Assembly (NCBI RefSeq): GCF_053078305.1
Contig: NZ_CP166879.1
DNA: 64,000 nucleotides
Strand: one strand, 5' to 3'
Shown: piece after piece, positions 1 to 53,358 of the stretch
Numbering within the stretch: the first letter of the stretch is position 1
Layout of the letters: each line of letters starts with the position of its first letter
The notes under the pieces: model-generated
Database searches by the model: none
Seen by the model: the letters and a program-made list of their open reading frames with translations, nothing else
What the model was told of the DNA's origin: nothing
Program-made: the position numbers and the translations under genes

Positions 1-65
1 GTCCATGCACGAACATGAGCGGGTGCACGGCCTTTTCGTCCCATGGGTTGTAATATCATCATGCA

Positions 66-581
66 TCACCCCCTGACTCGCTTTTCGGCAGCATAAAACT
101 CATCAGACAGAATTTCGGTCATTTTCCGTTTTGCGGAATCATCTTCGCACTGAAGGTAAATAACATTGTCAACGCAGAACCACTTAACGGGGCCAAACAG
201 TATTGCCGAGAAGTCAATGCCCAGCCAGAACAACAGCGCATCGGTTCTGGCATACGTGACGGGCGAATATTCACGCCACAGACTGTTCAGTTCATCAGAG
301 GCAACACGCAGGGTTTTAGGTATACGTGATGTGCGCGGCGTGCAGCTCCAGCCATTCGACGCAGTCGGTTTTCTCCATAAGTCGCGATGAAAAGGATATT
401 TGTCATCCATAAAGCGCAGCCCCTTAAAACAAAATCCACTGATACCGGATACAAATACCGGGCGGCACGCAACATTCAGCACAGCCTCAAGGCGTTTTGC
501 CTCATCTTTTACCGTCTGGCAGTCCTGCTGGTATTTTTGCCACGCAGCCAGCGCGGAAGGGTTTGAAGTTTTAAAGAACAT
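66..581 (-). CDS. hypothetical prophage early-region protein (171 aa)
   Basis: ORF in early operon downstream of gam; start overlaps upstream stop (TAATG); no family recognised. Confidence 0.5.
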   Translation of the reverse strand: MFFKTSNPSALAAWQKYQQDCQTVKDEAKRLEAVLNVACRPVFVSGISGFCFKGLRFMDDKYPFHRDLWRKPTASNGWSCTPRTSRIPKTLRVASDELNSLWREYSPVTYARTDALLFWLGIDFSAILFGPVKWFCVDNVIYLQCEDDSAKRKMTEILSDEFYAAEKRVRG

Positions 582-1114
582 TACGCCACCTCCGCAGAAA
601 TCGCGGCCGGTGCCGCTGTCCGGTCAACAATCAGGTAACGCAGAACGCGCGAGGTGATATTCCGGCCGCTTAAACCGCAGATAATGACGCCCAGGCGGAT
701 GTCGATATACGCCATCACAAACTGGGGCACGCCTTCTTTCATGGCCTGCTCATCAACTTCAGCCACCACATAAACGGTTTCACAGGTCAGAACGCCCTGA
801 GCAAATTCCCACGCCATCGACGGAATATCATGCCCCTCAATCCACGGCAGGGACTTTCTGAAGCTGCACCACTGAACATCATCAGCCGCACATTCCTGGC
901 TGCATTTGCGACGAACCGGCTGCACCGGGCGGGGACGCGGAATATCATAAAAACCGTTACATTCCGTCAGCACGCCTGCATCAACCGCATCACGCAGAAA
1001 ATAAACCATGGAGGATAGCGGCATATTCATTTTTTCTGCCAGAGAACGACTGGTCAGACGGCCAGAAAAACGCAGCCAGCTTTTAACCCCTTCAAGCACT
1101 TTTGCATCAATCAT
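581..1114 (-). CDS. hypothetical prophage early-region protein (177 aa)
   Basis: ORF co-directional with gam; no family recognised. Confidence 0.5.
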   Translation of the reverse strand: MIDAKVLEGVKSWLRFSGRLTSRSLAEKMNMPLSSMVYFLRDAVDAGVLTECNGFYDIPRPRPVQPVRRKCSQECAADDVQWCSFRKSLPWIEGHDIPSMAWEFAQGVLTCETVYVVAEVDEQAMKEGVPQFVMAYIDIRLGVIICGLSGRNITSRVLRYLIVDRTAAPAAISAEVA

Positions 1115-1259
1115 GATTTATTTCCCCACCACATTATTAATGACGATATAAACGTATTTCATATTTCTTAACCCTTATTTTCTGTTTTCAGGCGCAAGCA
1201 GTCCCCTGACGCAAGCGCCATAATTAAAACGATGTGATATTTAAAGATTTAATGCGGTG

Positions 1260-1790
1260 TTATTTATTCAGTCCGGCGTCCTGTTCAAAAGGCTCGACAT
1301 GAAAACTTTCAGCGCCTTTATTCACCTTAATACCAGCAATCCCTTTCACCGCATCCGGCTCCGCCAGGACAGCTTGCTTATTCACTTCCTCTTTCGTGCG
1401 GATGAAGCGCTCAAGCCCCATACGACGCAGCATTTCAATCACACCTTCCACATCACGACTGACGCTGCATGATGGATTTCCCAGCCGCCATGACACCGTT
1501 CCGGTGGTCAGATTGGCAGTTTTGGTTTCGCCGCCGTTCGTCAGCTCATTGCGGTTGGTTTTACACCAGTCATGAATCCCTTTAAAAAGCACTTTGATTT
1601 CTTTTTTAAGGTTTTCAATCTGCGGCGTATAACGGGCGGTGATTTCTGCCACTTCATCATTCATCGCCGTTTCCAGGCGCAGCGCCTCTCGCTGAATATC
1701 ACCCAGAGTGCGGATATCGCGGCTGACTTCTTCGCGGGTCTGTGGTGCGGCCTCGGCTGCGGCCTTTAATTTTGTAACACGTTTAACCAT
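1260..1790 (-). CDS. gam: Gam-like host-nuclease inhibitor / DNA-end binding protein
   Basis: Translation from internal Met (MVKRVTKLKAAAEA...) resembles phage Mu Gam along its length (LETAMND, ELTNGG, TANL, VSWR, FIRTK, PFEQ motifs). Confidence 0.8.
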   Translation of the reverse strand: MVKRVTKLKAAAEAAPQTREEVSRDIRTLGDIQREALRLETAMNDEVAEITARYTPQIENLKKEIKVLFKGIHDWCKTNRNELTNGGETKTANLTTGTVSWRLGNPSCSVSRDVEGVIEMLRRMGLERFIRTKEEVNKQAVLAEPDAVKGIAGIKVNKGAESFHVEPFEQDAGLNK

Positions 1791-1800
1791 TTTGTTTTCC

Positions 1801-2094
1801 TTATTGCAGTGCGCCTGATGCTTTATGCACACGGTGGCGTTTAATGATGGCATCCGCCCCAAAAGCCTGTACAGATGCCTGAAATTCCGCTGAGAGAAGC
1901 TGAATAATTGCAGGACTGTGATACTGGAGAATACTTGCATAAACGTCACAGAGTGACGTCGGGCTGTTCTCCGTATCACGTTCTGTTTTCACATCCACTC
2001 CAATCTTTTCATGCACTTCAACACAGTCATTGCCTGCCAGCTTTTCGTCATGCGAAACATGCTCAAATTCAAAAATAACGCGTACTTTGCTCAT
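1801..2094 (-). CDS. hypothetical small prophage protein, paralog 1
   Basis: Starts MSKVRVIFEFEHV; N-terminus paralogous to the adjacent upstream ORF; SD-like GGGG before the internal ATG. Confidence 0.5.
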   Translation of the reverse strand: MSKVRVIFEFEHVSHDEKLAGNDCVEVHEKIGVDVKTERDTENSPTSLCDVYASILQYHSPAIIQLLSAEFQASVQAFGADAIIKRHRVHKASGALQ

Positions 2095-2098
2095 GGAA

Positions 2099-2371
2099 TT
2101 ACCCCTGCTGATTAAATTCATTACCGTTAATAACCCCGGAAGCCATACCCCTGTCTTTCATGAATGCACTGGCTTTCATTGCCACAAGCTCTGCGAAGTT
2201 TCTGCTTTCTGCCAGCATAACCACCCCAAAAATCATGGCGGGTCCATTATCTTTCTTCTTTATTCCGGTTGAACGTATATCCAGACTTACCCCTCTGTGC
2301 GTGCTGCCATCAGAGTTTTTGCAGATAACATCTTCCTTGTATTCGAAAATAATGCGTACGACTTTACTCAT
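2099..2371 (-). CDS. hypothetical small prophage protein, paralog 2
   Basis: Starts MSKVVRIIFEYKEDV; AGAGGA SD-like sequence before the internal ATG; paralog of 1801-2094. Confidence 0.5.
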   Translation of the reverse strand: MSKVVRIIFEYKEDVICKNSDGSTHRGVSLDIRSTGIKKKDNGPAMIFGVVMLAESRNFAELVAMKASAFMKDRGMASGVINGNEFNQQG

Positions 2372-2445
2372 CCTCTGGCTCTCGTTTTGTTCGGATAACT
2401 GACCCGGCGTCTGACCTGATGACAGAGCCGAACCATGAAGCAACT

Positions 2446-2703
2446 TCATACTTCCCAGTAAACCGTGCATCCGCTTATGCGGGTGGCTTTCACACGGCGG
2501 CGCAGGCCGTTGGTCTTAACGGTGATTTCAATTTCCTCACCACTCCCCTGAACCTCGCCTACCGGCGGCGTGGTTTTCAGTGCAAAACGTTGCGGATAGC
2601 GCTTACTGCGTTCCAGTACCGCACCGGCAAGCTCGGTCAGGCGACGTGCGCTGTTCAGGGAGTCGAATAAATTCATTTTTTTACCGCTGGATTGCATATT
2701 CAT
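2446..2703 (-). CDS. hypothetical small prophage early protein (85 aa)
   Basis: ORF in early operon between the B-like and gam-like genes. Confidence 0.4.
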   Translation of the reverse strand: MNMQSSGKKMNLFDSLNSARRLTELAGAVLERSKRYPQRFALKTTPPVGEVQGSGEEIEITVKTNGLRRRVKATRISGCTVYWEV

Positions 2704-2715
2704 ATAACACCTCGT

Positions 2716-2943
2716 TTAACTGATTTGTTCAGCACCGATAAAACGGCAAATATTGCTGTAAGTTTCTGTCGCACCTTCGCGATCAAGTCCAACAGATATT
2801 GCCATTCGGGTGCGATCATTAAATTCAAAGAGTAAATCGCCACATTCTTCACTGTCAGACATGGAGACTGCTTTGACGTTATCGAAATTAACCAGGTAAA
2901 AGCGTCCGTAAATATCAGGAATATTAAATACCGCCATAATCAC
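2716..2943 (-). CDS. small early protein, possibly Kil-like (75 aa)
   Basis: Position immediately after the B-like gene and size match Mu kil; sequence identity not confirmed. Confidence 0.35.
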   Translation of the reverse strand: MIMAVFNIPDIYGRFYLVNFDNVKAVSMSDSEECGDLLFEFNDRTRMAISVGLDREGATETYSNICRFIGAEQIS

Positions 2944-3872
2944 ACCTGTGAAAGTAATTCAGGGTTGGTGTAAACCTCTTTAAAGGCCGCATTAATATGT
3001 TTTTCTGTCAGCGCCGCGCCTTCACCGCTGGCGGTGAGCCACGCCTGGTTAAGCGTATGTGTCAGAACGCGTAACGCCCCCGGCTTTTCAGCGATAGCCT
3101 GCATGACGGCCAGCTCGGCCTCACCACTGATCCCCCACGCCCTGGCAATGGCCAGCACATCCGCCTTTTTGGCCTTGCGAAGTTGTTTTGTACGGGCAAG
3201 ACGGCTGAACAGGCGCGATAAATCATCAAAGGCGCGGCGTCCACCTTTAAACAATCCGCGCGGGTTACCAATAAGTACCATCCCGATCCCCGTGGCGTCC
3301 TGAATTGCCCGGAGTTGTTCCAGACCGTCAATACCAAGATGATCTGCTTCGTCAACAATCACCAGTCCACGTGTTCCCGTCAGGCGACGGCGGATGGCGC
3401 GGGATAATGCCCCTTTGTTCGCGCGGGTGTAATCAATCCCCAGCGCATCGGCCAGCTCCAGCAAACACTCCGTGACGCTGGAGTGCGCGGGCGACAGGGT
3501 GATCATCCAGGTGTTCGGTTGCTCCTGACAGTAATTACGGGCCGTGGCCGTTTTACCCACACCCGGTACGCCCACAATGACGTTAATACAGCCCATCAGG
3601 CGAACCGCCTGAAACAGTGCGCGCAGCTCCTGGACTGTCTGCGTTTCAACAAACTGTGGCGGCTCGGGCAGTGCGCTTTGTTTATTCCAGTTCTCATACC
3701 AGGAACGCAGGGAAGCAGCCACAGCAGCGTTATCGCCTTTATATTTTCCCTTACGGAAAGCCGATAATGTGCCGTCGGAAATTCCCGCCTCTCTGGCGAT
3801 GGCATACTGCGTCAGTACGCCGCCATCAATAAGTTCATCAATGGTCTTGATTACATCGTTAATATCAGTCAT
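2940..3872 (-). CDS. MuB-like DNA transposition ATPase
   Basis: 310 aa, Walker A GVPGVGKT, N-terminal HTH-like segment, located after transposase as in Mu. Confidence 0.8.
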   Translation of the reverse strand: MTDINDVIKTIDELIDGGVLTQYAIAREAGISDGTLSAFRKGKYKGDNAAVAASLRSWYENWNKQSALPEPPQFVETQTVQELRALFQAVRLMGCINVIVGVPGVGKTATARNYCQEQPNTWMITLSPAHSSVTECLLELADALGIDYTRANKGALSRAIRRRLTGTRGLVIVDEADHLGIDGLEQLRAIQDATGIGMVLIGNPRGLFKGGRRAFDDLSRLFSRLARTKQLRKAKKADVLAIARAWGISGEAELAVMQAIAEKPGALRVLTHTLNQAWLTASGEGAALTEKHINAAFKEVYTNPELLSQV

Positions 3873-3943
3873 ATTATTAACCTCTCATTTGATACCTTGT
3901 TTAATCAAATAACCTGAGTCGCCGCTCGGGTTATTTTTTTATT

Positions 3944-6034
3944 TCAGGCCAGCGGGTCATTTTCTTTTAATTTCGCTTCCAGCAACTGCAATCCCCGCTG
4001 GAAATTACGCTCGTATTCTTCATCAGGTTCATCGTCAGCGACCGGTTGCTGAACGGTCACCGTATTACCCACAGGGCGGTATATGTTTTCCAGCCAGGGC
4101 TCCTGCGGCTTGTGCTCCAGCACGTTGACAACCTCATCCTCGGCATCACGGATTTTTTCCTCTGCGCGTTTACGCATGCCTTTAAGGCGTTGCTGCTGTT
4201 TGTAGTATTCCGCACTAACCGGGAAGGCTTCGCGTTTATTACCGTCCCATACCGCCTCGCAAATCACGCTGCCATCCAGGCGACGTACGGTAATTCGTTC
4301 GGCATCATGAATGTCATAGCTGATAAGCACCTTACGACCATGCTCGTCACGCAGCTCGGGCGCGTAGTAAATATTATTCAGCCAGCGTATTTCACAGCGT
4401 CTTACAGGGCGTTCCACCATCGGCCGGAACATATCCCGCAGCTCAACATCGGACAGCCATTCAATTTCCGTGTCCTCTTCCGCCAGGCGTTTTTTTCTGA
4501 ACTCCGCCGGGCTGTAATGCTTGCCGTTCGGCTTCACCGGTAATTCATCGTGCGGCCGGTTGTTGTACCACTCAACACCGTCACGAATGGCATCAATCAG
4601 TTCAGACCAGGACGGTAAATCACGCATCGCTGACTGCTGCCGGACGTTCAGCCGTTTGCCCTGTTGCAGGGCAGTAAATGCCGAGCGTAAATCGCGGTTG
4701 GTTTTGCGTAACGTCTCGCGATCTGCACCTTTCCCGAAATAGGTGCGGTATTTACGGGCTATGCGCATCGGTAATGTGCGGTTAAGCCGTTCGATAATGC
4801 CTCGTCCCTGCGGATTACCGGCAATCCCGGTCGGGTGATTAATCCCCAGTCGCGGCAGTATCCCCACAACCTCCTTATCCAGGATGTCGGCGGTTTCCCC
4901 GGAGCCGTTATCCGAGTAATACAGAAACGGTTTGCCGTGATGGCGAATGCCGTGCTGTATGGCACCGGCTACGGCGAAAACATTTTCAGCCAGGTCAAGG
5001 CTCCAGCCCACCACAAAGCGCGTGCCACCGTCGATAACAAAGGTCACTTCCGGTGCAAATGGCCGACCGTGAACCGGGTGTGCGCATTTCAGTTTCATGC
5101 CGTGACCGTCACCAATCCAGACATAATTCACCGGCATTTTTGACCAGTCGCGGCGCGTGAATCCCTCAAGCTGGCGGTATTCACTGCCGGTCACCCGGCC
5201 TTTTTGTTTCACCACTTCCGGCAGTTTCTTCATTGCGCGGCGAATGGTGTCATAAGACGGCATGATATCGAGCATATAAGGCTCATCAGCGTGCCGGTGC
5301 TGCCATTCAGCAACAAAATCCTCGTAAGCCTCGGTCATTGGTCGGCCGTTTGACTGGCGATACTGCGCCAGAAATTCGGGCAGCCAGTTAATATCTTCGG
5401 CTTTTATTTCCTGGCGCTTACCCGGTGCCAGTAAAAGCAGGCGTTCAGCGGCGTTCTGCGCCTTGTTAAAGGCCGCAATCCAGCGTTTCAGCGTGATTTC
5501 ACTTAACGCACGGCTGTTTCCCTTTTTGGCGTTCGCCGTCTCAACCATTGCCACAATGCGCTCGTCCAGCTGCGAACGTGCCAGGTTGTCAACGATAAAC
5601 CGGATAGCCTTCGCACAGCTGAAACCAGGTTGTTGCGCGACTTTCAGAACTTCGCTGACGATCGCGATTCGTGCATCAGCCACCTGGCGCTGGTTTTCAG
5701 TCAGGGCATTAAGGCGTTCGACCATCAGTTGTGGTGATCCGCGATATGCCTCCACCGCATCAACCACGGCAGGCGAGCGTCTGGCCTTTGTCACCACTGG
5801 AGCCGGTGATTCATCGACTTTTTGAGTCATCAGTTGCAGGGCGTAGCGTTCACGTAATGCCTGCTGCGTCACTTCAGGTAAACAGTCGATGCTGTATTCA
5901 GTTGCTTTAGAGCCTGAGCGACGACGGGAACAACAGCTTTTCCCTTGTACGTAACGTTGTAATGCCTGGCGAATACCTTTTGTTGTAGCAGGCATTCCGG
6001 GCGCGCCAATCAGTTCTTTTGCAATGACATACAT
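3944..6034 (-). CDS. MuA-like DDE transposase
   Basis: 696 aa ORF directly downstream of ner-like gene; size and position of Mu A. Confidence 0.8.
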   Translation of the reverse strand: MYVIAKELIGAPGMPATTKGIRQALQRYVQGKSCCSRRRSGSKATEYSIDCLPEVTQQALRERYALQLMTQKVDESPAPVVTKARRSPAVVDAVEAYRGSPQLMVERLNALTENQRQVADARIAIVSEVLKVAQQPGFSCAKAIRFIVDNLARSQLDERIVAMVETANAKKGNSRALSEITLKRWIAAFNKAQNAAERLLLLAPGKRQEIKAEDINWLPEFLAQYRQSNGRPMTEAYEDFVAEWQHRHADEPYMLDIMPSYDTIRRAMKKLPEVVKQKGRVTGSEYRQLEGFTRRDWSKMPVNYVWIGDGHGMKLKCAHPVHGRPFAPEVTFVIDGGTRFVVGWSLDLAENVFAVAGAIQHGIRHHGKPFLYYSDNGSGETADILDKEVVGILPRLGINHPTGIAGNPQGRGIIERLNRTLPMRIARKYRTYFGKGADRETLRKTNRDLRSAFTALQQGKRLNVRQQSAMRDLPSWSELIDAIRDGVEWYNNRPHDELPVKPNGKHYSPAEFRKKRLAEEDTEIEWLSDVELRDMFRPMVERPVRRCEIRWLNNIYYAPELRDEHGRKVLISYDIHDAERITVRRLDGSVICEAVWDGNKREAFPVSAEYYKQQQRLKGMRKRAEEKIRDAEDEVVNVLEHKPQEPWLENIYRPVGNTVTVQQPVADDEPDEEYERNFQRGLQLLEAKLKENDPLA

Positions 6035-6035
6035 A

Positions 6036-6284
6036 TCATGACGCCTTTCTCATATAGCTCTTAACCTGGTATCGACTGGGCCAGATTTCTTCAGGCGATA
6101 CCCCAAGAGCATCAGCAATTATTTGCTGATACGGTCGGCAAGGAGTACGTAATACGCTTTTCAGCGAATCCCTGCTGTAACCAGCCTTTAAAGATAAAGA
6201 GCGCAGTGATAAGCCAGCCATGTGTAAGCGCGCCTTGATGATTTCAGGCGGCCAATCGTGATCTGAAACTTCTCTTCTACTCAT
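6036..6284 (-). CDS. ner: Ner-like DNA-binding regulator
   Basis: 82 aa; C-terminal IIADALGVSPEEIWPSRYQ resembles Mu Ner. Confidence 0.75.
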   Translation of the reverse strand: MSRREVSDHDWPPEIIKARLHMAGLSLRSLSLKAGYSRDSLKSVLRTPCRPYQQIIADALGVSPEEIWPSRYQVKSYMRKAS

Positions 6285-6354
6285 ACTTCCTCTATTCTAA
6301 AAAGTTACCCGCGCGGATATTCGTGCGGATATCTGTACGGGTAAATAATGCATC

Positions 6355-6395
6355 ACTAAAAATACCAAATCAAGGTATTTTTGGTATTTTGGATA
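6355..6395. promoter_or_regulatory. operator/promoter region between divergent ner and c genes
   Basis: Inverted and direct repeats aaaatacc / ggtatttt (x2) in the divergent intergenic region. Confidence 0.4.
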
Positions 6396-6474
6396 ATTTT
6401 TGCTTTTATCCTTATTTTTCAATTGGATAAATAGAAAGAAACCTTTCCTTAGAAAAGCACCAAGAGGTATCTTT

Positions 6475-7005
6475 ATGTCGCAGGGAAAAGAACCTGTTAT
6501 TGAACGTATTGGAATGCTTACAAAGCGCTACCCTTCAAGAAGTGCAGCTGCCAGAGCGTGGGGAATCAATATCAACACATTAAACAGCTATTTCAAGGGA
6601 GGACAAACACAACCAGCCCCCAGAGAAAGTATCCTTATACGAATTTCTGAAAGTGAAGGAGTTAGTCTTGAGTGGCTTAAAGAGGGCAAGGGTGAATCAC
6701 CAAATGATGTTGGTATTTGTGGTAATTTTGGTTGTTCTGGTGATAAGGGAGATCAGCTTACACAGATGCTTTCATTCCTTACGAAAGACGAACGAGAACA
6801 GTTAACCAATCTCCTTGCTCGCAAAGGTGTAGAGACGGTTCTGACACTACTGGATAAAGAAAACCAGGATTTATTACAACTAGAAGGCAGGAAGCGCCTG
6901 GCTGCGTTGATGATTGTAGATATGCCAGACGATTGCGTCAGAGAGATTTTGGAAAAAACCGAGACAAGTAGGCAATCAAATCCGGTAGAATCTAAAGCGG
7001 GTTAG
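6475..7005 (+). CDS. prophage repressor (c-like)
   Basis: Divergent from ner, reads toward the prophage end; HTH-like N-terminus; AGAGG SD before the ATG at 6475. Confidence 0.65.
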   Translation: MSQGKEPVIERIGMLTKRYPSRSAAARAWGININTLNSYFKGGQTQPAPRESILIRISESEGVSLEWLKEGKGESPNDVGICGNFGCSGDKGDQLTQMLSFLTKDEREQLTNLLARKGVETVLTLLDKENQDLLQLEGRKRLAALMIVDMPDDCVREILEKTETSRQSNPVESKAG

Positions 7006-7272
7006 TTTGGCGAGGCTGGCCCGTATGTTAGTTGCCATATAGATTTAATGAAGTTTTAAACGCTTTAAAAAAGTTGAGATCGCAGTATCAAAAGTTTTGC
7101 CGATTTTAGAATAAACGATTAATTATTGCACAATCGGTATCAAATAGACTTTAAGCGCTCATCCAGACATCACCTGTTTTATTTCAGTATCTTACAGGTG
7201 ATTTCACCTCCTTTCACTAAAACCCTCGTTGGTATCAAATGATTCACCTGGTTACACCAGGCACAGAGTAAT

Positions 7273-7626
7273 GTGACCCAAATGATGCGCATGTTTAACT
7301 TTATGAAGAGTGTCGGCGCTACCCCCATCGTTAAAGCCATTGATGTTCCCGGTGAAAAACTGAACTCTCTGGAAGAACTGTTCCAAAAAACGATGGAAGA
7401 ATACGAGCAACGTTCTAGTACGTTGGCACAGTTAGCCGATGAAGCGAAAGAACTGAATGATGATTCAACCGTCAATTTCCTGCGCGATCTGGAAAAAGAA
7501 CAGCAGCATGATGGCCTGTTGCTGCAAACCATTCTTGATGAAGTGCGCAGTGCGAAACTTGCGGGTATGTGCCCAGTGCAGACCGACCAACATGTTCTGA
7601 ATGTCGTGTCGCATCAGCTGCATTGA
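7273..7626 (+). pseudogene. ftnB: ferritin-like protein FtnB, 5'-truncated by prophage insertion
   Basis: 117 aa ORF matches the C-terminal two thirds of FtnB; in-frame stop at 7240-7242 and no ferritin N-terminus upstream. Confidence 0.8.
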
Positions 7627-7669
7627 TCATACATCGGCGCTAATGCATTGCGCCGATGAAGTTTTTGAG

Positions 7670-7707
7670 AAACCGCTGCCTCATCTTTTTGAAGCAGCGG
7701 TTTTTTA
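7670..7707 (+). terminator. rho-independent terminator after ftnB
   Basis: Hairpin accgctgcctc...gaagcagcggt followed by T-run. Confidence 0.6.
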
Positions 7708-7956
7708 ATGGGATTCGCCTTGTGGGGTAAACTTGAGTTCAATCAGCGCGATGGCTTTTTGGATTGCCCGCATGGTGACCGGGTCTGCGGCGGCGGGATG
7801 GTTAGTAAAGTCGATATTCTTCAGCTGGCTGGACATTTTTTCGCGAACTTCAACGGGCGCGATTACATCGAGAACATCCAGAATTTGTTTGATAACCAAC
7901 TGGCAAGCAACCACATCAGAAACCAGTTCCTGATCGGCATTCAGCGGCTGGGACAT
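7705..7956 (-). CDS. yecJ: DUF2766 protein YecJ
   Basis: 83 aa ORF; synteny between ftnB and azuC. Confidence 0.85.
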
Positions 7957-8035
7957 CGTAATCTCCTGATAGCATTTTGAAAGCCGTTATAGTAGCGGCT
8001 TCACATCTTCAGCGATAGTCACATCCACCGTCACC

Positions 8036-8070
8036 AGGACACAAAAAAACCTGCCGGAGCAGGTTTTTTT
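8036..8070. terminator. bidirectional rho-independent terminator
   Basis: aaaaaaacctgccggagcaggttttttt hairpin flanked by A-run and T-run. Confidence 0.7.
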
Positions 8071-8071
8071 G

Positions 8072-8158
8072 TTATCGGAACATATTGCCTGGCGGTACGT
8101 CTTTGAACGTCTTGCAATAGTTATTGAACATACTTTTCAGGATTTTGCGCAGTTTCAT
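8072..8158 (-). CDS. azuC: small membrane protein AzuC (28 aa)
   Basis: Reverse-strand translation gives MKLRKILKSMFNNYCKTFKDVPPGNMFR. Confidence 0.85.
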   Translation of the reverse strand: MKLRKILKSMFNNYCKTFKDVPPGNMFR

Positions 8159-8419
8159 CGCGGCACTCCGACCATTTGTTATACAGGTGTTATTGTCTTT
8201 GCGCTTATAATATGACAACCATCACAAAAATCAATCTTTATGTGATGCAAATCACATAAATACCCCTTTAATGTTATAAAAATGATAATCAAAAAGCAGC
8301 CCCCCCTTTCTGACACCTACAGATGGCGAGAAATAGCGCCTGCCAGGCGTCTTTTCCGGCCATTGTCGCAGCGCTGTAACGCGTAAAATACTGCTTTCTT
8401 TTACTCTTCTGGCTGGACC

Positions 8420-8743
8420 ATGAGACTTCTGATTCTGACTCTTTCATTAATAACGCTGGTGGGGTGCACAGTTACTCGCCAGGCTCATGTGGGCGAAGTT
8501 GACGCGGCAACAGGTATTGTACGGTTGGTTTATGACCAGGCTTTTTTGCAGCATGCCCATACCGATCGTTATGTCAGTCGCGGGATCGCCGATCGCGCAT
8601 GCCAGCAGGAAGGCTATACCCACGCGATCCCCTTTGGTCAGCCAGTAGGCAACTGTAGCCTTTTTGCGGGTTCCTTATGTTTGAATACGGAATTCACTTT
8701 GTCATATCAGTGCCATCATTCCGCCTTCCCTGTCTTTCTCTAA
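8420..8743 (+). CDS. yecR: lipoprotein YecR
   Basis: 107 aa; lipobox LVGC signal. Confidence 0.85.
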   Translation: MRLLILTLSLITLVGCTVTRQAHVGEVDAATGIVRLVYDQAFLQHAHTDRYVSRGIADRACQQEGYTHAIPFGQPVGNCSLFAGSLCLNTEFTLSYQCHHSAFPVFL

Positions 8744-8913
8744 ATATTTTAATCAGCGAGGGGATCTTCGCTGATTAAAGAAATAGCGGTAATGCGTTTT
8801 ATTCCCATTCGTATTTTTAATAATTGAAGTTTATATTTTACCTTTTGCAAATAATAAAATAACAAATTATAGTGACGCCACAGCAACAAATATAACCTTT
8901 GTGGAGCACTATC

Positions 8914-9411
8914 ATGCTGAAACCAGAAATGATTGAAAAACTTAATGAGCAGATGAACCTGGAACTGTACTCTTCACTGCTTTATCAGCAAATGAGCGCC
9001 TGGTGCAGCTATCATACCTTCGAAGGTGCTGCCGCGTTCCTGCGCCGTCACGCCCAGGAAGAGATGACGCATATGCAGCGTCTGTTTGATTACCTGACTG
9101 ATACCGGCAATTTACCGCGTATTAATACCGTTGAATCTCCGTTTGCTGAATATTCCTCACTTGATGAATTATTCCAGGAAACCTATAAACACGAACAATT
9201 AATCACCCAGAAAATTAACGAACTGGCTCATGCTGCAATGACCAATCAGGACTACCCAACATTTAATTTCCTGCAATGGTATGTTTCTGAGCAGCATGAA
9301 GAAGAGAAACTGTTCAAATCGATTATTGATAAATTAAGCCTGGCAGGCAAAAGCGGCGAAGGTCTGTATTTTATCGACAAAGAACTCTCTACCCTCGACA
9401 CACAAAACTAA
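8914..9411 (+). CDS. ftnA: ferritin FtnA
   Basis: [17 protein letters not shown]... ferritin sequence; start at internal Met of the supplied ORF. Confidence 0.95.
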
Positions 9412-9418
9412 TGCTCTC

Positions 9419-9440
9419 CGGCGGCAGGTTTTCTGCCGCC
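9419..9440. terminator. bidirectional terminator between ftnA and yecH
   Basis: Hairpin ggcggcaggttttctgccgcc. Confidence 0.6.
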
Positions 9441-9448
9441 GTTTCAAA

Positions 9449-9688
9449 TCAGTGACGGCAAATCTTACTCTGATCGGTCGAAAAACCTTCTTCTGAAGGT
9501 ATAAATTTGCCTTTTGCTGCCAGAAACGCTACCAGCTCTCCCGCTGTCATCCCTTCTGCCGAGCAAGTGTGAAAACGTGCCTGTTCACCAAAACGCGCTT
9601 TAATCGCAGCTTCCAGACTGGCATGCGTATATTGCTCGCCTGATTCAATCATCATATTTAACACTTCATGACCGTGAATAGAGTCCAT
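9449..9688 (-). CDS. yecH: DUF2492 protein YecH
   Basis: 79 aa ORF; synteny. Confidence 0.85.
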   Translation of the reverse strand: MDSIHGHEVLNMMIESGEQYTHASLEAAIKARFGEQARFHTCSAEGMTAGELVAFLAAKGKFIPSEEGFSTDQSKICRH

Positions 9689-9769
9689 CGTTCCTCCTCA
9701 AAAAAAAGCCTAGCGTAGCGATTACCGCTTATGAAGACTTTGCGCCAGCGCAGGACTGAATGCTTTTAT

Positions 9770-9787
9770 TGTACATTTAAATTTACA
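9770..9787. promoter_or_regulatory. TyrR box upstream of tyrP
   Basis: TGTACATTTAAATTTACA fits TGTAAA-N6-TTTACA. Confidence 0.6.
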
Positions 9788-9878
9788 CCATATGTAACGT
9801 CGGTTTGACGAAGCAGCCGTTATGCCTTAACCTGCGCCGCAGATATCACTCATAAAGATCGTCAGGACAGAAGAAAGC

Positions 9879-11090
9879 GTGAAAAACAGAACCCTGGGAA
9901 GTGTTTTTATCGTGGCGGGAACCACAATTGGCGCAGGCATGCTGGCAATGCCGCTGGCTGCGGCCGGTGTTGGTTTTAGCGTTACTTTAATCTTGTTGAT
10001 TGGGCTTTGGGCGTTGATGTGCTACACGGCGCTATTACTACTGGAGGTGTACCAGCATGTTCCGGCAGATACCGGTCTGGGCACGCTGGCAAAACGCTAT
10101 CTGGGACGCTACGGTCAATGGCTGACGGGCTTCAGTATGATGTTCTTAATGTATGCTCTGACTGCGGCATACATCAGCGGTGCCGGTGAATTGTTGGCCT
10201 CCAGCATCAGCGACTGGACAGGTATTTCAATGTCGGCAACCGCTGGCGTGCTGTTGTTCACTTTTGTTGCCGGTGGCGTGGTTTGTGTCGGGACATCGCT
10301 GGTCGATTTATTTAACCGTTTTCTGTTCAGCGCCAAAATTATTTTTCTGGTGGTGATGCTGGTATTGCTGCTACCGCATATTCACAAAGTGAATCTTTTA
10401 ACCCTGCCGTTGCAACAGGGGCTGGCACTGTCTGCAATCCCGGTGATTTTTACGTCGTTTGGTTTTCACGGTAGCGTGCCGAGTATTGTCAGCTATATGG
10501 ATGGCAACATTCGTAAGCTACGCTGGGTGTTTATAACCGGTAGTGCGATCCCCCTGGTGGCATATATTTTCTGGCAGGTGGCGACGCTTGGCAGCATTGA
10601 TTCAACAACCTTTATGGGATTGCTGGCTAATCATGCCGGATTAAACGGGCTGTTACAGGCGTTACGCGAAATGGTGGCCTCTCCGCATGTTGAGCTGGCA
10701 GTGCATTTATTTGCTGATTTAGCCCTCGCCACGTCATTTCTCGGCGTTGCGTTAGGCTTATTTGATTATCTGGCTGATTTGTTTCAGCGTTCAAATACCG
10801 TTGGTGGAAGATTGCAAACGGGTGCAATTACCTTTCTGCCGCCGTTGGCGTTTGCACTGTTTTATCCACGAGGATTTGTGATGGCGCTGGGTTACGCCGG
10901 TGTGGCGCTGGCGGTACTGGCATTGATTATCCCTTCACTATTGACCTGGCAAAGCAGAAAGCACAATCCTCAGGCGGGTTACCGGGTCAAAGGTGGTCGT
11001 CCGGCGCTGGTGGTGGTGTTTCTCTGTGGTATTGCTGTGATTGGCGTGCAATTTTTGATTGCGGCAGGGTTGTTACCAGAAGTGGGGTGA
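9879..11090 (+). CDS. tyrP: tyrosine-specific transporter TyrP
   Basis: 403 aa multi-pass membrane protein; synteny. Confidence 0.95.
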
Positions 11091-11151
11091 TTAGATAGCC
11101 TCAAATTCCTTATTGGGTGCCAGAATTAACGCTGACACCCAATTTGACTTC

Positions 11152-11817
11152 TTAATGCAGGCAGCACTGCTTAAATTTCTTACCACTACCGCACGGGCAA
11201 GGATCGTTACGCCCCGGTTTCTCTTCTGCTTTGATCGGTTGCTGAACAGATTTTTCCTGCGGATGCGCCATCCAGTACGCATGTAGATCAAGCGCCGCCA
11301 GTCGAATGGCATCTACGCTCTCTTCAAACGCTTCTGGCGACATCTTCTCTACCCGCTCGAAGTTTTCCTCAGTACCGTGCAGCGCAATCGCCTCCAGCGC
11401 TGGTTTTAACGAATCGGGCAATGTTGACCAGTCAGAAAGTGCCACGCCCCGCATATAGCCAAAGCACCACTCCTCAACAATCGTCAGCTCGCTGCCATCA
11501 ACTTCTCGCAAGCCGAATAACGGCTCAAACTGCTCCGGGAATTCGTTCAGACGCTCTGCGGTATCGGCCATATGTTGAAAAGCCAGGTTCATAAAGCGCG
11601 TCATCTCTTTCTCTGACGCCCAGCGCGGCACATAGTCAGCCCCACCCCACACGGCAACCAGCCACTGTGCCGGTTCAATCTCTTGCGGAGAACTCAACAC
11701 CGCCGTCAATAAACCGTCCAGCTCCGCCACATCAAGGATGGCGTGGTCAGTGTTGTATTTGGTCAGAATATCGTCCAGCCATTCCAACTCACTTTCGTTT
11801 AACGGTCCCGTTTTCAT
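11152..11817 (-). CDS. yecA: SEC-C motif protein YecA
   Basis: 221 aa; C-terminal [13 protein letters not shown]. Confidence 0.9.
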
Positions 11818-12012
11818 ACGCTTTTCCTTGTGGATCTCAACTCGCCAGCACCTATCTTACATGCCGGTCCGTATCAGAGATACTTTTTGAGTGGCTTTGC
11901 CGGTGATTAAAAATCAAGGTGGGTGTAACGACAAGTTGCAGGCACAAAAAAACCACCCGAAGGTGGTTTCACGACACTGCTTATTGCTTTGATTTTATTC
12001 TTATCTTTCCCA

Positions 12013-12099
12013 TGGTACCCGGAGCGGGACTTGAACCCGCACAGCGCGAACGCCGAGGGATTTTAAATCCCTTGTGTCTACCGATTCCACCATCCGGGC
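12013..12099 (-). tRNA. leuZ: tRNA-Leu
   Basis: 87 nt; reverse complement matches tRNA-Leu with long variable arm and CCA end. Confidence 0.9.
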
Positions 12100-12111
12100 T
12101 CGGGAAGAAAG

Positions 12112-12185
12112 TGGAGGCGCGTTCCGGAGTCGAACCGGACTAGACGGATTTGCAATCCGCTACATAACCGCTTTGTTAACGCGCC
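12112..12185 (-). tRNA. cysT: tRNA-Cys
   Basis: 74 nt; reverse complement GGCGCGTTAACAAAGCGG...CTCCA. Confidence 0.9.
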
Positions 12186-12238
12186 AAATTCTTCAGGCCT
12201 TTCAGCCAGACATCCGCTGACGCCGATGTCTTTTAAAC

Positions 12239-12314
<76 letters not shown>

Positions 12315-12465
12315 ATTCATCAAGCAATCAGTTAATCACTTGATTTTATTATCGTCTGGCAATCAGTGCCGCCGTTCGATGCGTTGCATTCTACTTACCT
12401 GGCGCGATGAGTCAACGATATTTTTCACCACTTTTGATCGTTTGCTGAAAATTGCGCCGAAACGA

Positions 12466-13014
12466 TCACTGATCAAGCAAATCTGCACGCGCAGCGCTCA
12501 AATATTGCAACATTGACCACAGAGTCAGTACCGCAGCCACAAAGAAAAGTGCAATACCGGCGTACTCAACCCAAATGTTCGGACGCCACAGCAGCCATGC
12601 CAACGCCACCATCTGGGCAGTGGTTTTCACTTTCCCAATCCAGGAGACAGCCACGCTACTGCGTTTACCCAACTCCGCCATCCATTCGCGTAGCGCAGAA
12701 ATAATAATTTCACGGGCGATCATCGTTGCCGCCGGTAAGGTCACCCACCAGCTGTGGTAATGCTCGGTTACCAGCACCATGGCGATAGCCACGAGAACTT
12801 TATCTGCTACAGGGTCAAGGAAAGCACCAAACCGGGTACTCTGGTTCCAGCGGCGTGCCAGAAAACCATCGAACCAGTCAGTCACCGCCGCGACGCAGAA
12901 AATGAGCGCGGCGGCAAACGGCGACCAGGTGACAGGCAGATAAAAGACCAATACAAAGAATGGGATAAGGATGACACGGAACAGTGTAAGCAACGTAGGG
13001 ATATTAAATTGCAT
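12466..13014 (-). CDS. pgsA: CDP-diacylglycerol--glycerol-3-phosphate 3-phosphatidyltransferase
   Basis: 182 aa; CDP-alcohol phosphatidyltransferase motif; synteny with uvrC. Confidence 0.95.
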
Positions 13015-13070
13015 AATGACGGGTAACTATCTGTTGTCAGTAAGATTACCCCTATGTTGCTACAGAGACA

Positions 13071-14903
13071 TCAATGTTTCAACGACCAGAAGATCTTTTC
13101 TGCCAGACCTTGCGAAATACCCGGCACTTTTGCAATTTCCTCGACGCTGGCGTTACGTAAACCTTGCAAACCGCCCATATATTTCAACAACATTTGCCGA
13201 CGTTTTGGCCCGACGCCTTCAATGGTTTCCAGGGAACTGGTATTTTTGACCTTCGCCCGTTTTTTACGGTGCCCGCCAATCGCGTGATCGTGTGATTCAT
13301 CGCGAATATGCTGGATAACATGCAGCGCGGGAGAATCTGGCGGCAAACTGAATCCCTCACCTTCCGGCTCAAAGAACAGCGTTTCCAGCCCAGCCTTACG
13401 ATCTGCTCCTTTGGCAACGCCAAGTAGCAGCGGATGATTTTTATCCCATGAGACATCCAGTTCGGCGAAGACATTTTTCGCCTGCGCAAGCTGGCCTTTG
13501 CCGCCGTCGATAAGTATCACATCCGGGATCTTACTGTCGTCGATGGCTTTACCATAACGCCGACGCAGCACCTGATTCATCGCCGCATAATCATCGCCCG
13601 GCGTGATGCCAGTAATGTTATAGCGCCGATACTCCGCACGCAGCGGGCCGTTAGCATCAAACACCACACAGGAAGCGACGGTTTGTTCACCCATGGTATG
13701 GCTGATGTCAAAGCACTCCATCCGCTTCACTTCCGGCAATTTCAACACGCTGGCAAGTGCTGTAAGCCGCTGGTGAACGGTAGATTGCTGCGAAAGTTTG
13801 CTGGTTAAGGCCGTCGCCGCATTGGTGCGCGCGAGTTTCAGGTAACGCGCCCTATCGCCGCGAGGTTTGGTTTGAACATTAATCTTGCGTCCCGCCAGTT
13901 CTGAAAGGGAATCGGCGAGCAGCGTTTTATCGCTAAGATTAAAATCGAGCAGGATCTCACCCGGTAAGGTGCGCATCTGGCTGCCTTGTAAATAGAACTG
14001 TCCTACGAAGGTTTCCACCACCTCGCTCAGTTCCGTACCGCCAGGCACTTTCGGGAAATAGCTGCGGCTGCCAAGCACTTTGCCCTGACGAATGAACAAT
14101 ACGTGGACACAAGCCATGCCCGCATCGAACGCCACACCAATAACGTCAAGGTCGTCGCCGGTATTGGAAACAAACTGTTTTTCGGTGACGCGTCGCACCG
14201 CCTGAATTTGGTCGCGAATACGTGCCGCTTCTTCAAACTCCAGATTGTGACTGGCAGTTTCCATACGGCTAATCAGTTGCGTAAGCACCTGATCATCTTT
14301 GCCAGACAAAAACAGGCGCACATACTCGACCTGCTGAGCGTATTCTTCTTCACTAACCAGTCCTTCAACGCACGGTCCCAGACAGCGCCCTATCTGATAT
14401 TGCAGACATGGACGCGAGCGATTGCGATAAACACTATTTTCGCACTGGCGAATGGGGAAAATCTTTTGCAGTAGCGCCAGTGTTTCACGTACGGCATAGC
14501 CATTCGGGAACGGGCCGAAATATTCACCTTTGGCATGCTTCGCACCACGATGCATCGCCAGACGCGGGTGGGTATCGCCACTCAGGAAGATAAAAGGATA
14601 TGATTTATCATCGCGTAGCAAAACATTGTAACGCGGCTGATAGAGTTTGATGTAGTTGTGTTCCAGCAACAGCGCTTCGGTTTCTGTATGAGTAACCGTT
14701 ACATCAATTTGCTGGATCTGGGCGACCAGCGCTTCGGTTTTGCGCGAAGCGAGGTTGCTACGGAAATAGCTGGAAAGCCGTTTTTTCAGGTCTTTCGCTT
14801 TGCCGACATAGATAACCGTACCACCAGCATCGTACATGCGATAAACGCCAGGCTGGCTGGTTACGGTTTTTAAAAACGCTTTTGCGTCAAACTGATCACT
14901 CAC
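13071..14903 (-). CDS. uvrC: excinuclease ABC subunit C
   Basis: 610 aa; GIY-YIG N-terminus. Confidence 0.95.
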
Positions 14904-15556
14904 TGACTTGATAATGTCTCCGCATTACACAGACCATGGCGAATTGCCAGGTGAGTCAGCTCAACATCGCCATGAATGTTTAGTTTACTGAACATACGAT
15001 AGCGGTAGCTGTTCACCGTTTTCGGACTGAGATTGAGCTGTTCTGAGATCTCATTGACCTTCTGGCCCTTGGTGATCATCAGCATAATCTGCAATTCACG
15101 TTCAGACAAACTGGCAAATGGGCTTTCTGTTTTTTCTGGTTCGATCTGGCTTAACGCCATTTGTTGAGCGATGTCAGAAGCAATGTAACGCTGCCCTGAA
15201 TAGACAGAACGGATCGCACTCACGACTTCCTGCGGAGCCGCGCCTTTGCTGAGGTAGCCCGCAGCACCGGCCTGCATGACTTTCGCTGGTAAAGGGTTTT
15301 CTGTATGGACGGTAAGCATGATGATTTTTACATCAGCTGTGGAACGCGCGATTTTACGCGTCGCCTCAAGACCGCCAATGCCCGGCATACTCATGTCCAT
15401 TAGCACCACGTCAACGGCATTTGCCCGGCACCACTTAACGGCGTCTTCACCGCACGATGCCTCACCGACGACTTTTATACCCTTTATATCTTCCAGAATG
15501 CGTCGTATCCCTGCGCGCACCAGTTCGTGGTCATCAACAAGTAGAACGTTGATCAA
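14900..15556 (-). CDS. uvrY: response regulator UvrY
   Basis: 218 aa; receiver domain plus LuxR-type HTH. Confidence 0.95.
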
Positions 15557-16014
15557 AGGAATATCTCCAGAAATAGGGATAACGCTACTGATAGTTAGTC
15601 ATTCGTATATTAGCGGTTTTTATTGCAACTTTGAAACGTTAAAAATGGTGGGTATTCGATTTTTCTCTCGTTTTTGTCAATTCGATTGTCCACAGTTATG
15701 GTCACGCCCGTCACCAACGGCTTACCGGATCGTTTCACAGTAAGCCCTGCGACGAAATGTGACAAAAATTGACTTTATTCAGCAAAAATGAAAATCAGCC
15801 CGCTGAATATGTAACATTAATTAACCCGAACAATACGGGCAAAAAACATTCATGATAAAAATATTTATTGGTCATTATATTAACGTATTTTATAGCACTG
15901 CCGATATCACGCTCAAAAAACAACCACTGCTATTTTTAGCAAAGCTTATGGTATACTCCGCCGCCTTAACATTTTTCACCGCAAATTTTCATTGCAACAT
16001 GACGAGGAAAATAA

Positions 16015-16239
16015 ATGAGTACGCCTGATTTTTCTACTGCCGAGAATAATCAAGAACTGGCAAATGAAGTCTCCTGCCTGAAAGCGATGCTGACGCTGAT
16101 GCTACAGGCGATGGGACAAGCTGATGCGGGCCGCGTGATGTTAAAGATGGAAAAACAGCTTGCGCTGATCGAAGACGAAACCCAGGCTGCAGTATTTTCC
16201 AAAACGGTTAAGCAAATTAAACAAGCCTACCGTCAGTAA
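16015..16239 (+). CDS. yecF: DUF2594 protein YecF
   Basis: 74 aa ORF; synteny. Confidence 0.85.
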
Positions 16240-44770: not shown

Positions 44771-44858
44771 AAAATCCCGACCCTGAGGGGGTCGGGATGA
44801 AACTTGCTTAAGCAAGAAGCACTTAAAAAATTCGTTACACCAGGAAATCTGATGTGTT
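44771..44858 (-). ncRNA. dsrA: DsrA small regulatory RNA
   Basis: Reverse complement reads AACACATCAGATTTCCTGGTGTAACGAATTTTTTAAGTGCTTCTTGCTTAAGCAAGTTTCATCCCGACCCCCTCAGGGTCGGGATTT with terminator hairpin. Confidence 0.9.
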
Positions 44859-53267: not shown

Positions 53268-53358
53268 TTTTTATTATTCTGTGTCATGATGCTTCCGTTA
53301 TTAGCCTTTTATCGTCTTGTTTATATTTTTTGGGCCGGCATGATGCCGGCTTTTTTTT
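53268..53358 (+). ncRNA. rseX: putative small RNA (RseX-like position) ending at an intrinsic terminator
   Basis: Strong hairpin gggccggcatgatgccggc plus T8 at 53332-53358 in the AT-rich yedR-yedS spacer; 5' end not determined. Confidence 0.35.

Follow-up and report, generated by a model that had tools for sequence, protein, structure and literature searches.

Phages of the Sp18 type are a described group of Mu-like prophages in E. coli. Sp18 itself, from E. coli O157:H7 Sakai, is Mu-like, predicted to be intact and packaged, and such phages lie at strain-specific sites (PMC2669165, PMC7430833, PMC10132054); the insertion sites of Sp18-type phages differ between strains (PMC7430833, PMC10132054). 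Treatment with mitomycin C failed to induce Sp18 (PMC2669165). Further examples are Mu_JNE122137, which lies within the GenBank sequence LC727895, and a prophage of E. coli O157:H7 FRIK2533, where a complete 38.8-kb copy splits dcuC and carries Mor, lysis, head, tail, invertase, Com and Mom genes. Among transposable phages more widely, Mu duplicates 5 bp of its target and B3 duplicates 6 bp (PMC8705779).

An insertion of this kind was found at one end of a 64,000-nucleotide stretch of contig NZ_CP166879.1, referred to here as the window, which is 100% identical to assembly GCA_000736735.1. With a probability of roughly 0.93, positions 1-7256 are the left, early-gene arm of a Sp18-type Mu-like prophage that entered codon 45-46 of ftnB by DDE transposition, duplicated CCAG and split the gene. 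This reading is carried by gene content, gene order and homologies, by the exact terminus, both junctions and the 4-bp duplication, and by the scattered sites of relatives. The kind of prophage has been described already and is common in Shiga-toxin E. coli; the insertion site is new. A first-pass annotation of the same DNA had called the element a diverged relative of Mu. The divergence is real, with identities of 22% for A, 48% for B and 54% for Gam, but the element is not novel, being 95-97% identical to deposited Sp18-type copies.

The early region

The early arm is reversed in the window, with the repressor gene c on the plus strand and ner, A, B, kil-like, gam and the gp11- and gp12-like genes on the minus strand. 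Order and orientation agree with the c / ner-A-B-kil...gam-gp11-gp12 arrangement of Mu, a match far above chance. The first-pass annotation had picked out MuA-like, MuB-like, Gam-like, Ner-like and c-like genes in the order and orientation of the Mu early region; coordinates and strands were confirmed for all five ORFs, and the claim about their arrangement is borne out by the ORFs and by comparison with the Mu proteins.

The MuA-family DDE transposase (696 aa; 3944-6034, minus strand) belongs to phrog_310 (E 5.8e-213), and MuA itself falls into this same PHROG (E 8.6e-199). Pfam finds Mu-transpos_C (PF09299, E 3.5e-17) and HTH_Tnp_Mu_1 (PF02316, E 1.6e-5). A full-length alignment with MuA gives 22% identity and places D309 and D375 opposite MuA D269 and D336; the predicted catalytic residues are D309, D375 and E415. 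A PDB sequence search with the transposase returned retroviral integrases over the D...E segment, with D375...E415 aligned to the D...E of the integrase, and did not find MuA at E <= 0.01. This integrase match informs the catalytic residues and has no bearing on Mu-like membership. Searches of NCBIfam gave only sub-threshold matches to IS3/IS481 transposases and SfsB, and the exact 696-aa sequence is on record in two contigs only.

Directly downstream lies the gene for a MuB-like AAA+ transposition ATPase (310 aa; 2940-3872, minus strand), which is 48% identical to MuB (E 2e-96), belongs to phrog_296 (E 1e-109), matches PF09077 (Phage-MuB_C) and has the Walker A motif GVPGVGKT at residues 101-108. 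A lack of homology of the 696-aa and 310-aa proteins to MuA and MuB had been named in advance as evidence against a Mu-like element; both are homologous, the former through the PHROG shared with MuA and the latter through its direct similarity to MuB.

The remaining genes of the arm are all on the minus strand. A small early protein of 73 aa (2716-2937), an ORF with a gene call in the identical contig, is followed by a Kil-like protein of 85 aa (2446-2703) that matches PF26843 (Kil_protein) and, weakly, Mu Kil (E 1.4e-4). Two more small early proteins come next, one of about 90 aa (2099-2371; phrog_4107, E 1.8e-54, over residues 34-123 of a 123-aa ORF) and one of 97 aa (1801-2094; phrog_2230), which is called in the identical contig. 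The gene at 2099-2371 has no call in the public assembly. Gam, a host-nuclease inhibitor that protects DNA ends (176 aa; 1260-1790), is 54% identical to Mu Gam (E 2e-68; phrog_491, E 1e-66; PF07352). The gp11-like protein (177 aa; 581-1114) is 66% identical to Mu gp11 (E 5e-74; phrog_1949), and the gp12-like protein (171 aa; 66-581) is 51% identical to Mu gp12 (E 5e-62; phrog_2314; Pfam Phage_Mu_Gp12). Positions 1-62 hold the start of an early-region gene whose 183-aa product continues past the window start (gene call L011 15973-16524 in the 100% identical contig). Rfam and tRNA scans gave no match within the phage arm.

That the element extends upstream of the window, as had been proposed, was confirmed in contig 10 of GCA_000736735.1, which is identical to the window and runs past its start into GemA, Mor, lysozyme/lysis, DUF2730 and head genes.

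Repressor, Ner and the control region

The lysogeny repressor (176 aa; 6475-7005, plus strand) has an HTH-type N-terminal part and belongs to phrog_3037 (E 1e-62). Its C-terminal residues 91-174 match phrog_7148, the Mu c family (E 2e-10), and there is no Pfam match to the protein at E <= 0.001. Whereas the N-termini of Mu c and MuA are homologous (E 3e-13), the N-terminus of this repressor is unrelated to that of its own transposase (E 19). The repressor may have lost the DNA-binding domain common to Mu c and MuA, in which case the two proteins would perhaps not compete for a single operator/enhancer as they do in Mu. The Ner-like protein, an early repressor (82 aa; 6036-6284, minus strand), is 43% identical to Mu Ner (E 8.5e-13), belongs to phrog_769 and is SfsB/Nlp-like.

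Between ner and c lies an AT-rich stretch (6285-6474; GC 0.39-0.41) that probably serves as a divergent regulatory region. Its inverted and direct repeats (I1, I6, I7, D1 and D8) are candidate operators, look-alike repeats stand at 6710-6736, and the stretch has one promoter-like site directed toward ner (6422->6393), a match that is not above chance. The promoter and terminator scan, which covered 6200-7300, stayed at the level expected from shuffled sequence, so the promoters are treated here as predicted ones.

By homology with Mu, the regulatory logic would run as follows. In a lysogen, the repressor would bind operators in 6285-6474 and keep the early promoter for ner-A-B-kil...gam off. 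On loss of repression, the transposase would bind the repeats at both phage ends and nick the 3' ends, and the MuB-like ATPase would pick targets at which the transposase joins the ends with a 4-bp stagger. The outcome would be replicative transposition, with Gam guarding the DNA ends. The ftnB copy may itself be active, judging by the same homology.

Ends of the phage and the insertion in ftnB

The left terminus lies at 7253-7256 and reads 5'-TGTA ACCAGGTGAATCA... on the minus strand. Phage similarity stops at 7256/7257 and host similarity begins at 7257; the identical left terminus was found in 8 other copies. The right end reads ...GCGCTATA, that is, TA, in all 9 copies examined, and the first 26-30 nt at both termini are identical among the Sp18-type copies examined. 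The termini are TG...TA, not the 5'-TG...CA-3' that the first-pass annotation anticipated.

Three copies of the motif TTTGATACY lie in the attL region (7084-7239, minus strand), one each at 7231-7239, 7136-7144 and 7084-7092, and are presumed to be the transposase-binding sites L1-L3. Counted from the terminus, they span nt 18-26, 113-121 and 165-173. In the 64 kb, three of four matches to the motif fall within 7084-7239, all on the same strand, with 0.97 expected. Near the right end the motif stands 18, 40 and 75 nt from the terminus, such that each terminus has three copies within 173 nt, inverted between the ends, which accounts for six of the eight occurrences in the 38.8-kb copy. Repeats bound by the transposase had been expected near 7150-7260; putative end repeats are indeed present, but their span is 7084-7239.

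Downstream of the phage, 7257-7626 (plus strand) is a 3' fragment of the disrupted ftnB (nt 135-504 of 504), with 1 mismatch in 370 nt relative to the intact ftnB of strain ET350. Host sequence had been placed as resuming at about 7258; it does resume after the phage, at exactly base 7257 (ftnB nt 135). An intact ftnB N-terminus adjoining 7273-7626, which would have spoken against an insertion, is absent; none is contiguous with 7257 because the preceding stretch is phage DNA. The strain is an ftnB null mutant because a mobile prophage sits in the gene, and what reads as a 117-aa 'ferritin' ORF at 7273-7626 is only a piece of it. A look-up of this 117-aa fragment turned up genomes in which ftnB is frameshifted into ORFs of 49-51 aa and 117 aa, with no phage there, and these say nothing about the insertion.

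The search for the other end of the element, suggested by the first-pass annotation, led to the reciprocal junction. In contig 4 of GCA_000736735.1, ftnB nt 1-138 is joined to the phage right end, beside mom, and the contig also carries invertase, tail fibre and baseplate genes. On the host side, araF adjoins the 5' part of ftnB and yecJ the 3' part. This junction indicates simple transposition into ftnB, and the placement of the element inside that gene stands, with junctions at nt 1-138 and nt 135-504. The sequence CCAG (ftnB nt 135-138) is present twice, at 7257-7260 (plus strand) and at the end of the ftnB 5' fragment directly before the phage right terminus (L013 10135-10138). Both junctions in one gene together with a perfect 4-bp duplication are the signature of a single simple insertion.

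The duplication is therefore 4 bp rather than the 5 bp first proposed, and it is 4 bp in 7/7 independent simple insertions; moving either boundary by one base does not yield a 5-bp duplication. The ftnB-phage fusion ORF predicted from a 4-bp duplication (82 aa) has an exact match on record. For a 5-bp duplication, a 47-aa fusion ORF was predicted, and it is without any record. A 4-bp duplication was already annotated by the GenBank depositor in LC727895, and searches of the literature in the library covered found no stated 4-bp duplication for Sp18-type phages. In short, a common family of Mu-like phages in E. coli breaks two rules that are often used for delimiting transposable prophages, the TG...CA ends and a duplication of 5 or 6 bp, and automated boundary finders built on these rules will misplace Sp18-type ends.

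Alternative explanations

Several observations count against the main reading: the 22% identity to MuA, the absence of MuA from the PDB search, the lack of a Pfam match for the repressor and the shuffled-level frequency of promoter-like sites. The Mu hallmarks of a 5-bp duplication and a CA right terminus are also unmet, the window holds only about 7.3 kb of phage, and the two draft contig ends leave about 15 kb in the middle of the prophage uncovered, so that a complete and active ftnB copy is a presumption.

The alternative that survives best, although it is unlikely, is that ftnB carries a defective or rearranged remnant, which has both ends but lacks internal parts or has junctions that stem from Mu-mediated rearrangement, rather than a complete inducible prophage. 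The window holds the early arm only, and GCA_000736735.1 is a draft whose contigs end within the phage on both sides. Moreover, at least one relative, that of strain 2313, lies between unrelated flanks, with hyaE on one side and torS on the other, and Sp18-type phages therefore do leave rearrangements. On the other hand, none of the early ORFs is truncated and all are collinear with those of the complete FRIK2533 copy, both junctions fall in ftnB with the perfect duplication, and breaks within the phage are expected if the genome has a second similar copy.

It is very improbable that ftnB is a preferred or site-specific target and the insertion a lineage marker instead of a near-random event. 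No support for this was found, and the likeness of CCAG to other short targets is trivial. Among 5,426 complete E. coli genomes, about 115-230 carry Sp18-type phages (278 places, spread over 230 genomes and different genes), but the ftnB-phage junction is in 0/5,426. The sites of relatives include dcuC, fbpC, a GntP-family permease gene, ypdA, rihA, a slipin gene, Stx phages and others, and their 4-bp duplications are unrelated in sequence (CTGG, AGAG, ATTA, CACG, AATT, AAAG and CGAC). The description of the insertion as a strain-specific event of a near-randomly placed phage is upheld by these counts, and the ftnB insertion can serve as a strain marker.

An assembly artefact, in which a chimeric contig created the phage/ftnB junction, could be read into the draft source and the contig ends within the phage but has a negligible probability, given that the junctions were assembled independently on two contigs and fit to the base, that the identical 4-bp overlap pattern occurs in six other genomes and that the identical transposase, with the same neighbour genes, is present on a second contig of more than 1 Mb.

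Comparison with known transposable phages

The insertion of a Sp18-type prophage into ftnB can be set against several known systems. Transposases closer than MuA are those of Pseudomonas phage VW-6B (48%), Klebsiella phage Kp4852-3 (41%) and the D3112/DMS3 group (about 30% for the D3112 group), and Yersinia phages vB_YpM_5/6 share 81.5% DNA identity over part of the A gene. All of these phages have other hosts, and the remaining arm is without a near-identical DNA match in them.

The nearest DNA relatives are Sp18-type. The inserts in LC727895 and LC727881, annotated as 'Mu-like phage', are 96.5% and 95.2% identical over 98-99% of 1-7256, and the FRIK2533 copy has 92-97% nucleotide identity to the window arm. 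The segment 1145-2440 is more diverged from the Sp18 type (92-96%), and about 1123-1186 is without a match. Sp18-type phages share with the ftnB prophage the termini, end repeats, gene order, gene lengths and the 4-bp duplication.

The likeness to Mu and D108 is one of architecture: c / ner-A-B-kil...gam-gp11-gp12, a MuA-family DDE transposase that combines Mu-transpos_C with an N-terminal DNA-binding domain of the Mu type, a MuB-type ATPase and, in relatives, Mor, GemA, an invertible tail-fibre segment, Com and Mom. The left ends each have three repeats of similar spacing, with cores at 21, 126 and 166 nt in Mu and motifs at 18, 113 and 165 nt here. In contrast, A is 22% identical to that of Mu and c is without significant BLAST similarity. 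At the DNA level there is no megablast match to Mu and only patches of 66-69% identity, so the element is not Muvirus mu. The duplication is 4 bp here versus 5 bp in Mu, and the right terminus is TA here versus CA. Tentatively, and at somewhat less than even odds, the 4-bp stagger, the asymmetric TG...TA ends and a repressor without the DNA-binding domain shared with MuA may mark the Sp18 type as a mechanistically distinct branch of the transposable phages.

Insertion in ftnB

The left (early) arm of a Mu-like transposable prophage of the Sp18 type occupies 1-7256, in reversed orientation. Phage similarity ends at 7256/7257 and host similarity starts at 7257; set against the ftnB of strain ET350 (intact, 504 nt), host sequence restarts at nt 135 of the gene, with one mismatch in 370 nt. 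The first-pass annotation placed the return of host sequence at about 7258; ftnB does lie beyond the phage arm, with host sequence returning exactly at 7257 and the phage terminus at 7256, reading 5'-TGTAACCAGGTGAATCATTTGATACC on the minus strand. With the gene picked up again only at nt 135, the 117-aa ORF at 7273-7626 is a fragment, FtnB residues 51-167. Several assemblies of unrelated origin, and also metagenome contigs, have a frameshifted ftnB without phage, as a 49-51-aa ORF and the same 117-aa ORF. A lone 117-aa "ferritin" ORF is therefore not in itself a sign of this insertion; some of the frameshifted cases may be sequencing errors.

Among the complete E. coli genomes of the collection, none spans the phage/ftnB junction; the best coverage is 83%, from 7257. 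By exact-sequence look-up, the transposase sequence occurs in two contigs only, one of which is JPQG01000010.1 of GCA_000736735.1. Window positions 1-16034 are 100% identical to this contig, and on the far side of window position 1 the contig carries additional early genes, GemA, Mor, lysozyme and later genes. The other end of the element was sought via the predicted product of the ftnB 5' fragment fused to the phage right end. The 47-aa fusion product predicted by a 5-bp duplication is absent from the record. The 82-aa product predicted by a 4-bp duplication is found exactly once, at the end of JPQG01000004.1 in the same assembly, between araF-araG-araH and a stretch with mom, invertase and tail genes. 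The right junction in that contig reads ...TTCCTTCGCGCCCAG up to the boundary and TATAGCGCGGCGATTTTTTTGATACC... beyond it. One junction holds ftnB nt 1-138 and the other nt 135-504, and given this overlap the gene was split by a simple insertion that duplicated 4 bp, CCAG (7257-7260 in the window; L013 10135-10138, from JPQG01000004.1). This copy of the prophage, of which the two contigs cover all but the central ~15 kb, is likely complete, and its consequence for the host is the disruption of ftnB.

The remaining window is ordinary E. coli chromosome, with the leuZ-cysT-glyW tRNAs (tRNA-Leu(taa)/Cys/Gly cluster, 12013-12314) and the small RNAs DsrA (44772-44858) and RseX (53268-53357).

Early genes and divergence from Mu

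All five ORFs named in the first-pass annotation are present, with unchanged coordinates, in a six-frame ORF list. By PHROG profiles they are a transcriptional repressor (6475-7005, plus strand; phrog_3037, E 1e-62) and, on the minus strand, a Ner-type repressor (6036-6284; phrog_769, E 3e-26), a 696-aa transposase (3944-6034; phrog_310, E 5.8e-213), the 310-aa DNA transposition protein B (2940-3872; phrog_296, E 1e-109) and a Mu Gam-like end-protection protein (1260-1790, inside a longer GTG-started ORF; phrog_491, E 1e-66). The longest repressor ORF starts from TTG at 6400, and an AAGAGG Shine-Dalgarno sequence stands 7 nt ahead of the ATG at 6475. The transposase family phrog_310 also takes in MuA itself (E 8.6e-199), and the 696-aa protein matches the Pfam families Mu-transpos_C (E 3.5e-17) and HTH_Tnp_Mu_1, a Mu DNA-binding domain (E 1.6e-5). 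Precomputed Pfam matches for the identical public contig also include Phage-MuB_C, Kil_protein, Phage_Mu_Gam, Gp11_C and Phage_Mu_Gp12. At 2099-2371, on the minus strand, lies an ORF of ~90 aa (phrog_4107, E 1.8e-54) where the public assembly has no gene call. It begins MSKVVRIIFEY, much like the adjoining 97-aa protein, which begins MSKVRVIFEF, and the likeness suggests that the two are paralogues.

Direct BLASTP against the proteins of Mu (NC_000929) gives identities of 66% for gp11, 54% for Gam, 51% for gp12, 48% for B (E 2e-96), 43% for Ner and 22% for A over its full length (E 2e-10), and no significant similarity between c and Mu c (E 0.55). The DNA can be aligned with Mu only in patches of 66-69%. 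The earlier description of the proteins as clearly diverged from Mu itself is correct. In alignments, D309 (WIGD) and D375 (YSDNG) of the transposase pair with D269 and D336 of MuA, and the D375...E415 segment pairs with the D...E of retroviral integrases; from these pairings, the catalytic triad is predicted to be intact.

Repressor and ner-c region

In Mu, the repressor and the transposase bind the same operator/enhancer via homologous domains, and c and MuA share an N-terminal domain (42% over 52 residues, E 3e-13). In the Sp18-type phage, by contrast, the repressor (6475-7005) is not similar to the N-terminus of the transposase (5585-6034; E 19), and its likeness to Mu c is C-terminal only: residues 91-174 match phrog_7148, the family defined by Mu c (E 2e-10), and the N-terminal half gives only weak HTH/XRE-type matches. 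As judged from its sequence, the repressor differs in type from that of Mu, and with no resemblance between repressor and transposase N-terminus, Mu's shared operator/enhancer recognition has probably not been carried over unchanged.

The ner-c intergenic region is AT-rich and 190 bp long. It contains an imperfect 19-nt inverted repeat (6305-6344), tandem CGYGCGGATATY repeats (6310-6333), an inverted repeat AAAATACCAAA/TTTGGTATTTT (6359-6390) and overlapping direct repeats GGTATTTTTGGT. A promoter-like site at 6422->6393 points towards ner, the number of such matches being no higher than the shuffled expectation. Inside c, a 27-nt stretch at 6710-6736 holds two overlapping GGTAWTTKTGGT repeats and is 78% identical to the ner-c repeats at 6374-6407; the stretch may be an additional operator, or the likeness may be fortuitous.

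Relatives in E. coli

The element belongs to the Sp18 type known from the literature. Megablast against phage records gave two near-full-length matches (96.5% and 95.2% identity, 98-99% of 1-7256), both within Stx-converting phages, LC727895 and LC727881, where they are annotated as "region of the inserted Bacteriophage Mu-like phage". The 957 bp adjoining the terminus were found at 278 places in 230 of 5,426 complete E. coli genomes, with at least 80% covered in 115 of those genomes, and the phage right end is present in 231. About half of the phage-bearing genomes match 6300-7256 at its two edges alone (27-34% coverage, two pieces), a pattern that points to at least two alleles, or immunity types, of the repressor/operator block among Sp18-type phages. 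A complete copy of about 38.76 kb splits dcuC in the O157:H7 strain FRIK2533 and encodes the whole Mu-like programme, with GemA, Mor, lysis, head and contractile tail genes, invertase and tail-fibre genes, Com and Mom.

Sp18, from O157 Sakai, was considered intact; it is not circularised, its packaging is efficient and mitomycin C does not induce it (PMC2669165). Sp18-type phages occupy strain-specific sites (PMC7430833), and in the STEC clonal complex CC119 they are dispersed over chromosomes and within other prophages (PMC10132054). The reading of the arm as a strain-specific Mu-family insertion in ftnB is upheld, and the element is a member of a common, already described E. coli Mu-like prophage family at a strain-specific site.

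Phage ends and target duplication

In the 64-kb window the motif TTTGATACY is found four times (0.97 expected). The minus strand holds three of these copies, at 7231-7239, 7136-7144 and 7084-7092, which places them 18-26, 113-121 and 165-173 nt in from the terminus. The right end carries the motif in inverted orientation at 18, 40 and 75 nt. In the FRIK2533 copy, six of the eight occurrences of TTTGATAC fall within the two end clusters. The left-end spacing (18, 113, 165) is like that of the Mu L1-L3 site cores (21, 126, 166), and we infer that these motifs are candidate transposase-binding sites. The sole TTTGATACC of the window outside the phage end lies at 3888-3896 (plus strand), in the A-B intergenic spacer, and the FRIK2533 copy has one equivalently placed. 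A 12-nt inverted repeat, GACATCACCTGT/ACAGGTGATTTC, lies at 7166-7205, in the spacer that separates the first end motif from the second, and may serve as a host-factor or accessory site; related CAGGTGA words recur at the terminus.

Both junctions of eight further copies were extracted and oriented on the phage. The left terminus TGTAACCAGGTGAATCATTTGATACC is present in seven of them; in the ypdA copy (CP038282) the search pattern did not match the left junction. The right terminus ...ATCGCCGCGCTATA is present in all eight. Exactly 4 bp are duplicated in six further simple insertions, into a Stx1 phage, dcuC, fbpC, a GntP-family permease gene, rihA and a slipin gene (duplications AGAG, ATTA, CACG, AATT, AAAG and CGAC). 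From the flanking bases of the window's copy and of LC727895, a one-base shift of either boundary yields no 5-bp repeat. The copy in strain 2313 (NZ_AP027159.1, 1253560 and about 1292326) has hyaE on one side, torS on the other and no duplication; these unlike flanks suggest a phage-associated deletion or rearrangement of the intervening DNA. A 4-bp duplication is already given in the depositors' annotation of LC727895 and is therefore not previously unseen; a literature search found no paper discussing it in Sp18-type phages.

The first-pass annotation anticipated a 5-bp target duplication and a 5'-TG...CA-3' terminus. The duplication is instead 4 bp in 7/7 independent simple insertions, CCAG here, and the ends are TG...TA. 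Target duplications are 5 bp for Mu and 6 bp for B3, and every Mu- or B3-like phage described by then shared TG-CA ends (PMC8705779). Sp18-type phages differ from both Mu and B3 in the length of the target duplication and in the right terminus, TA.
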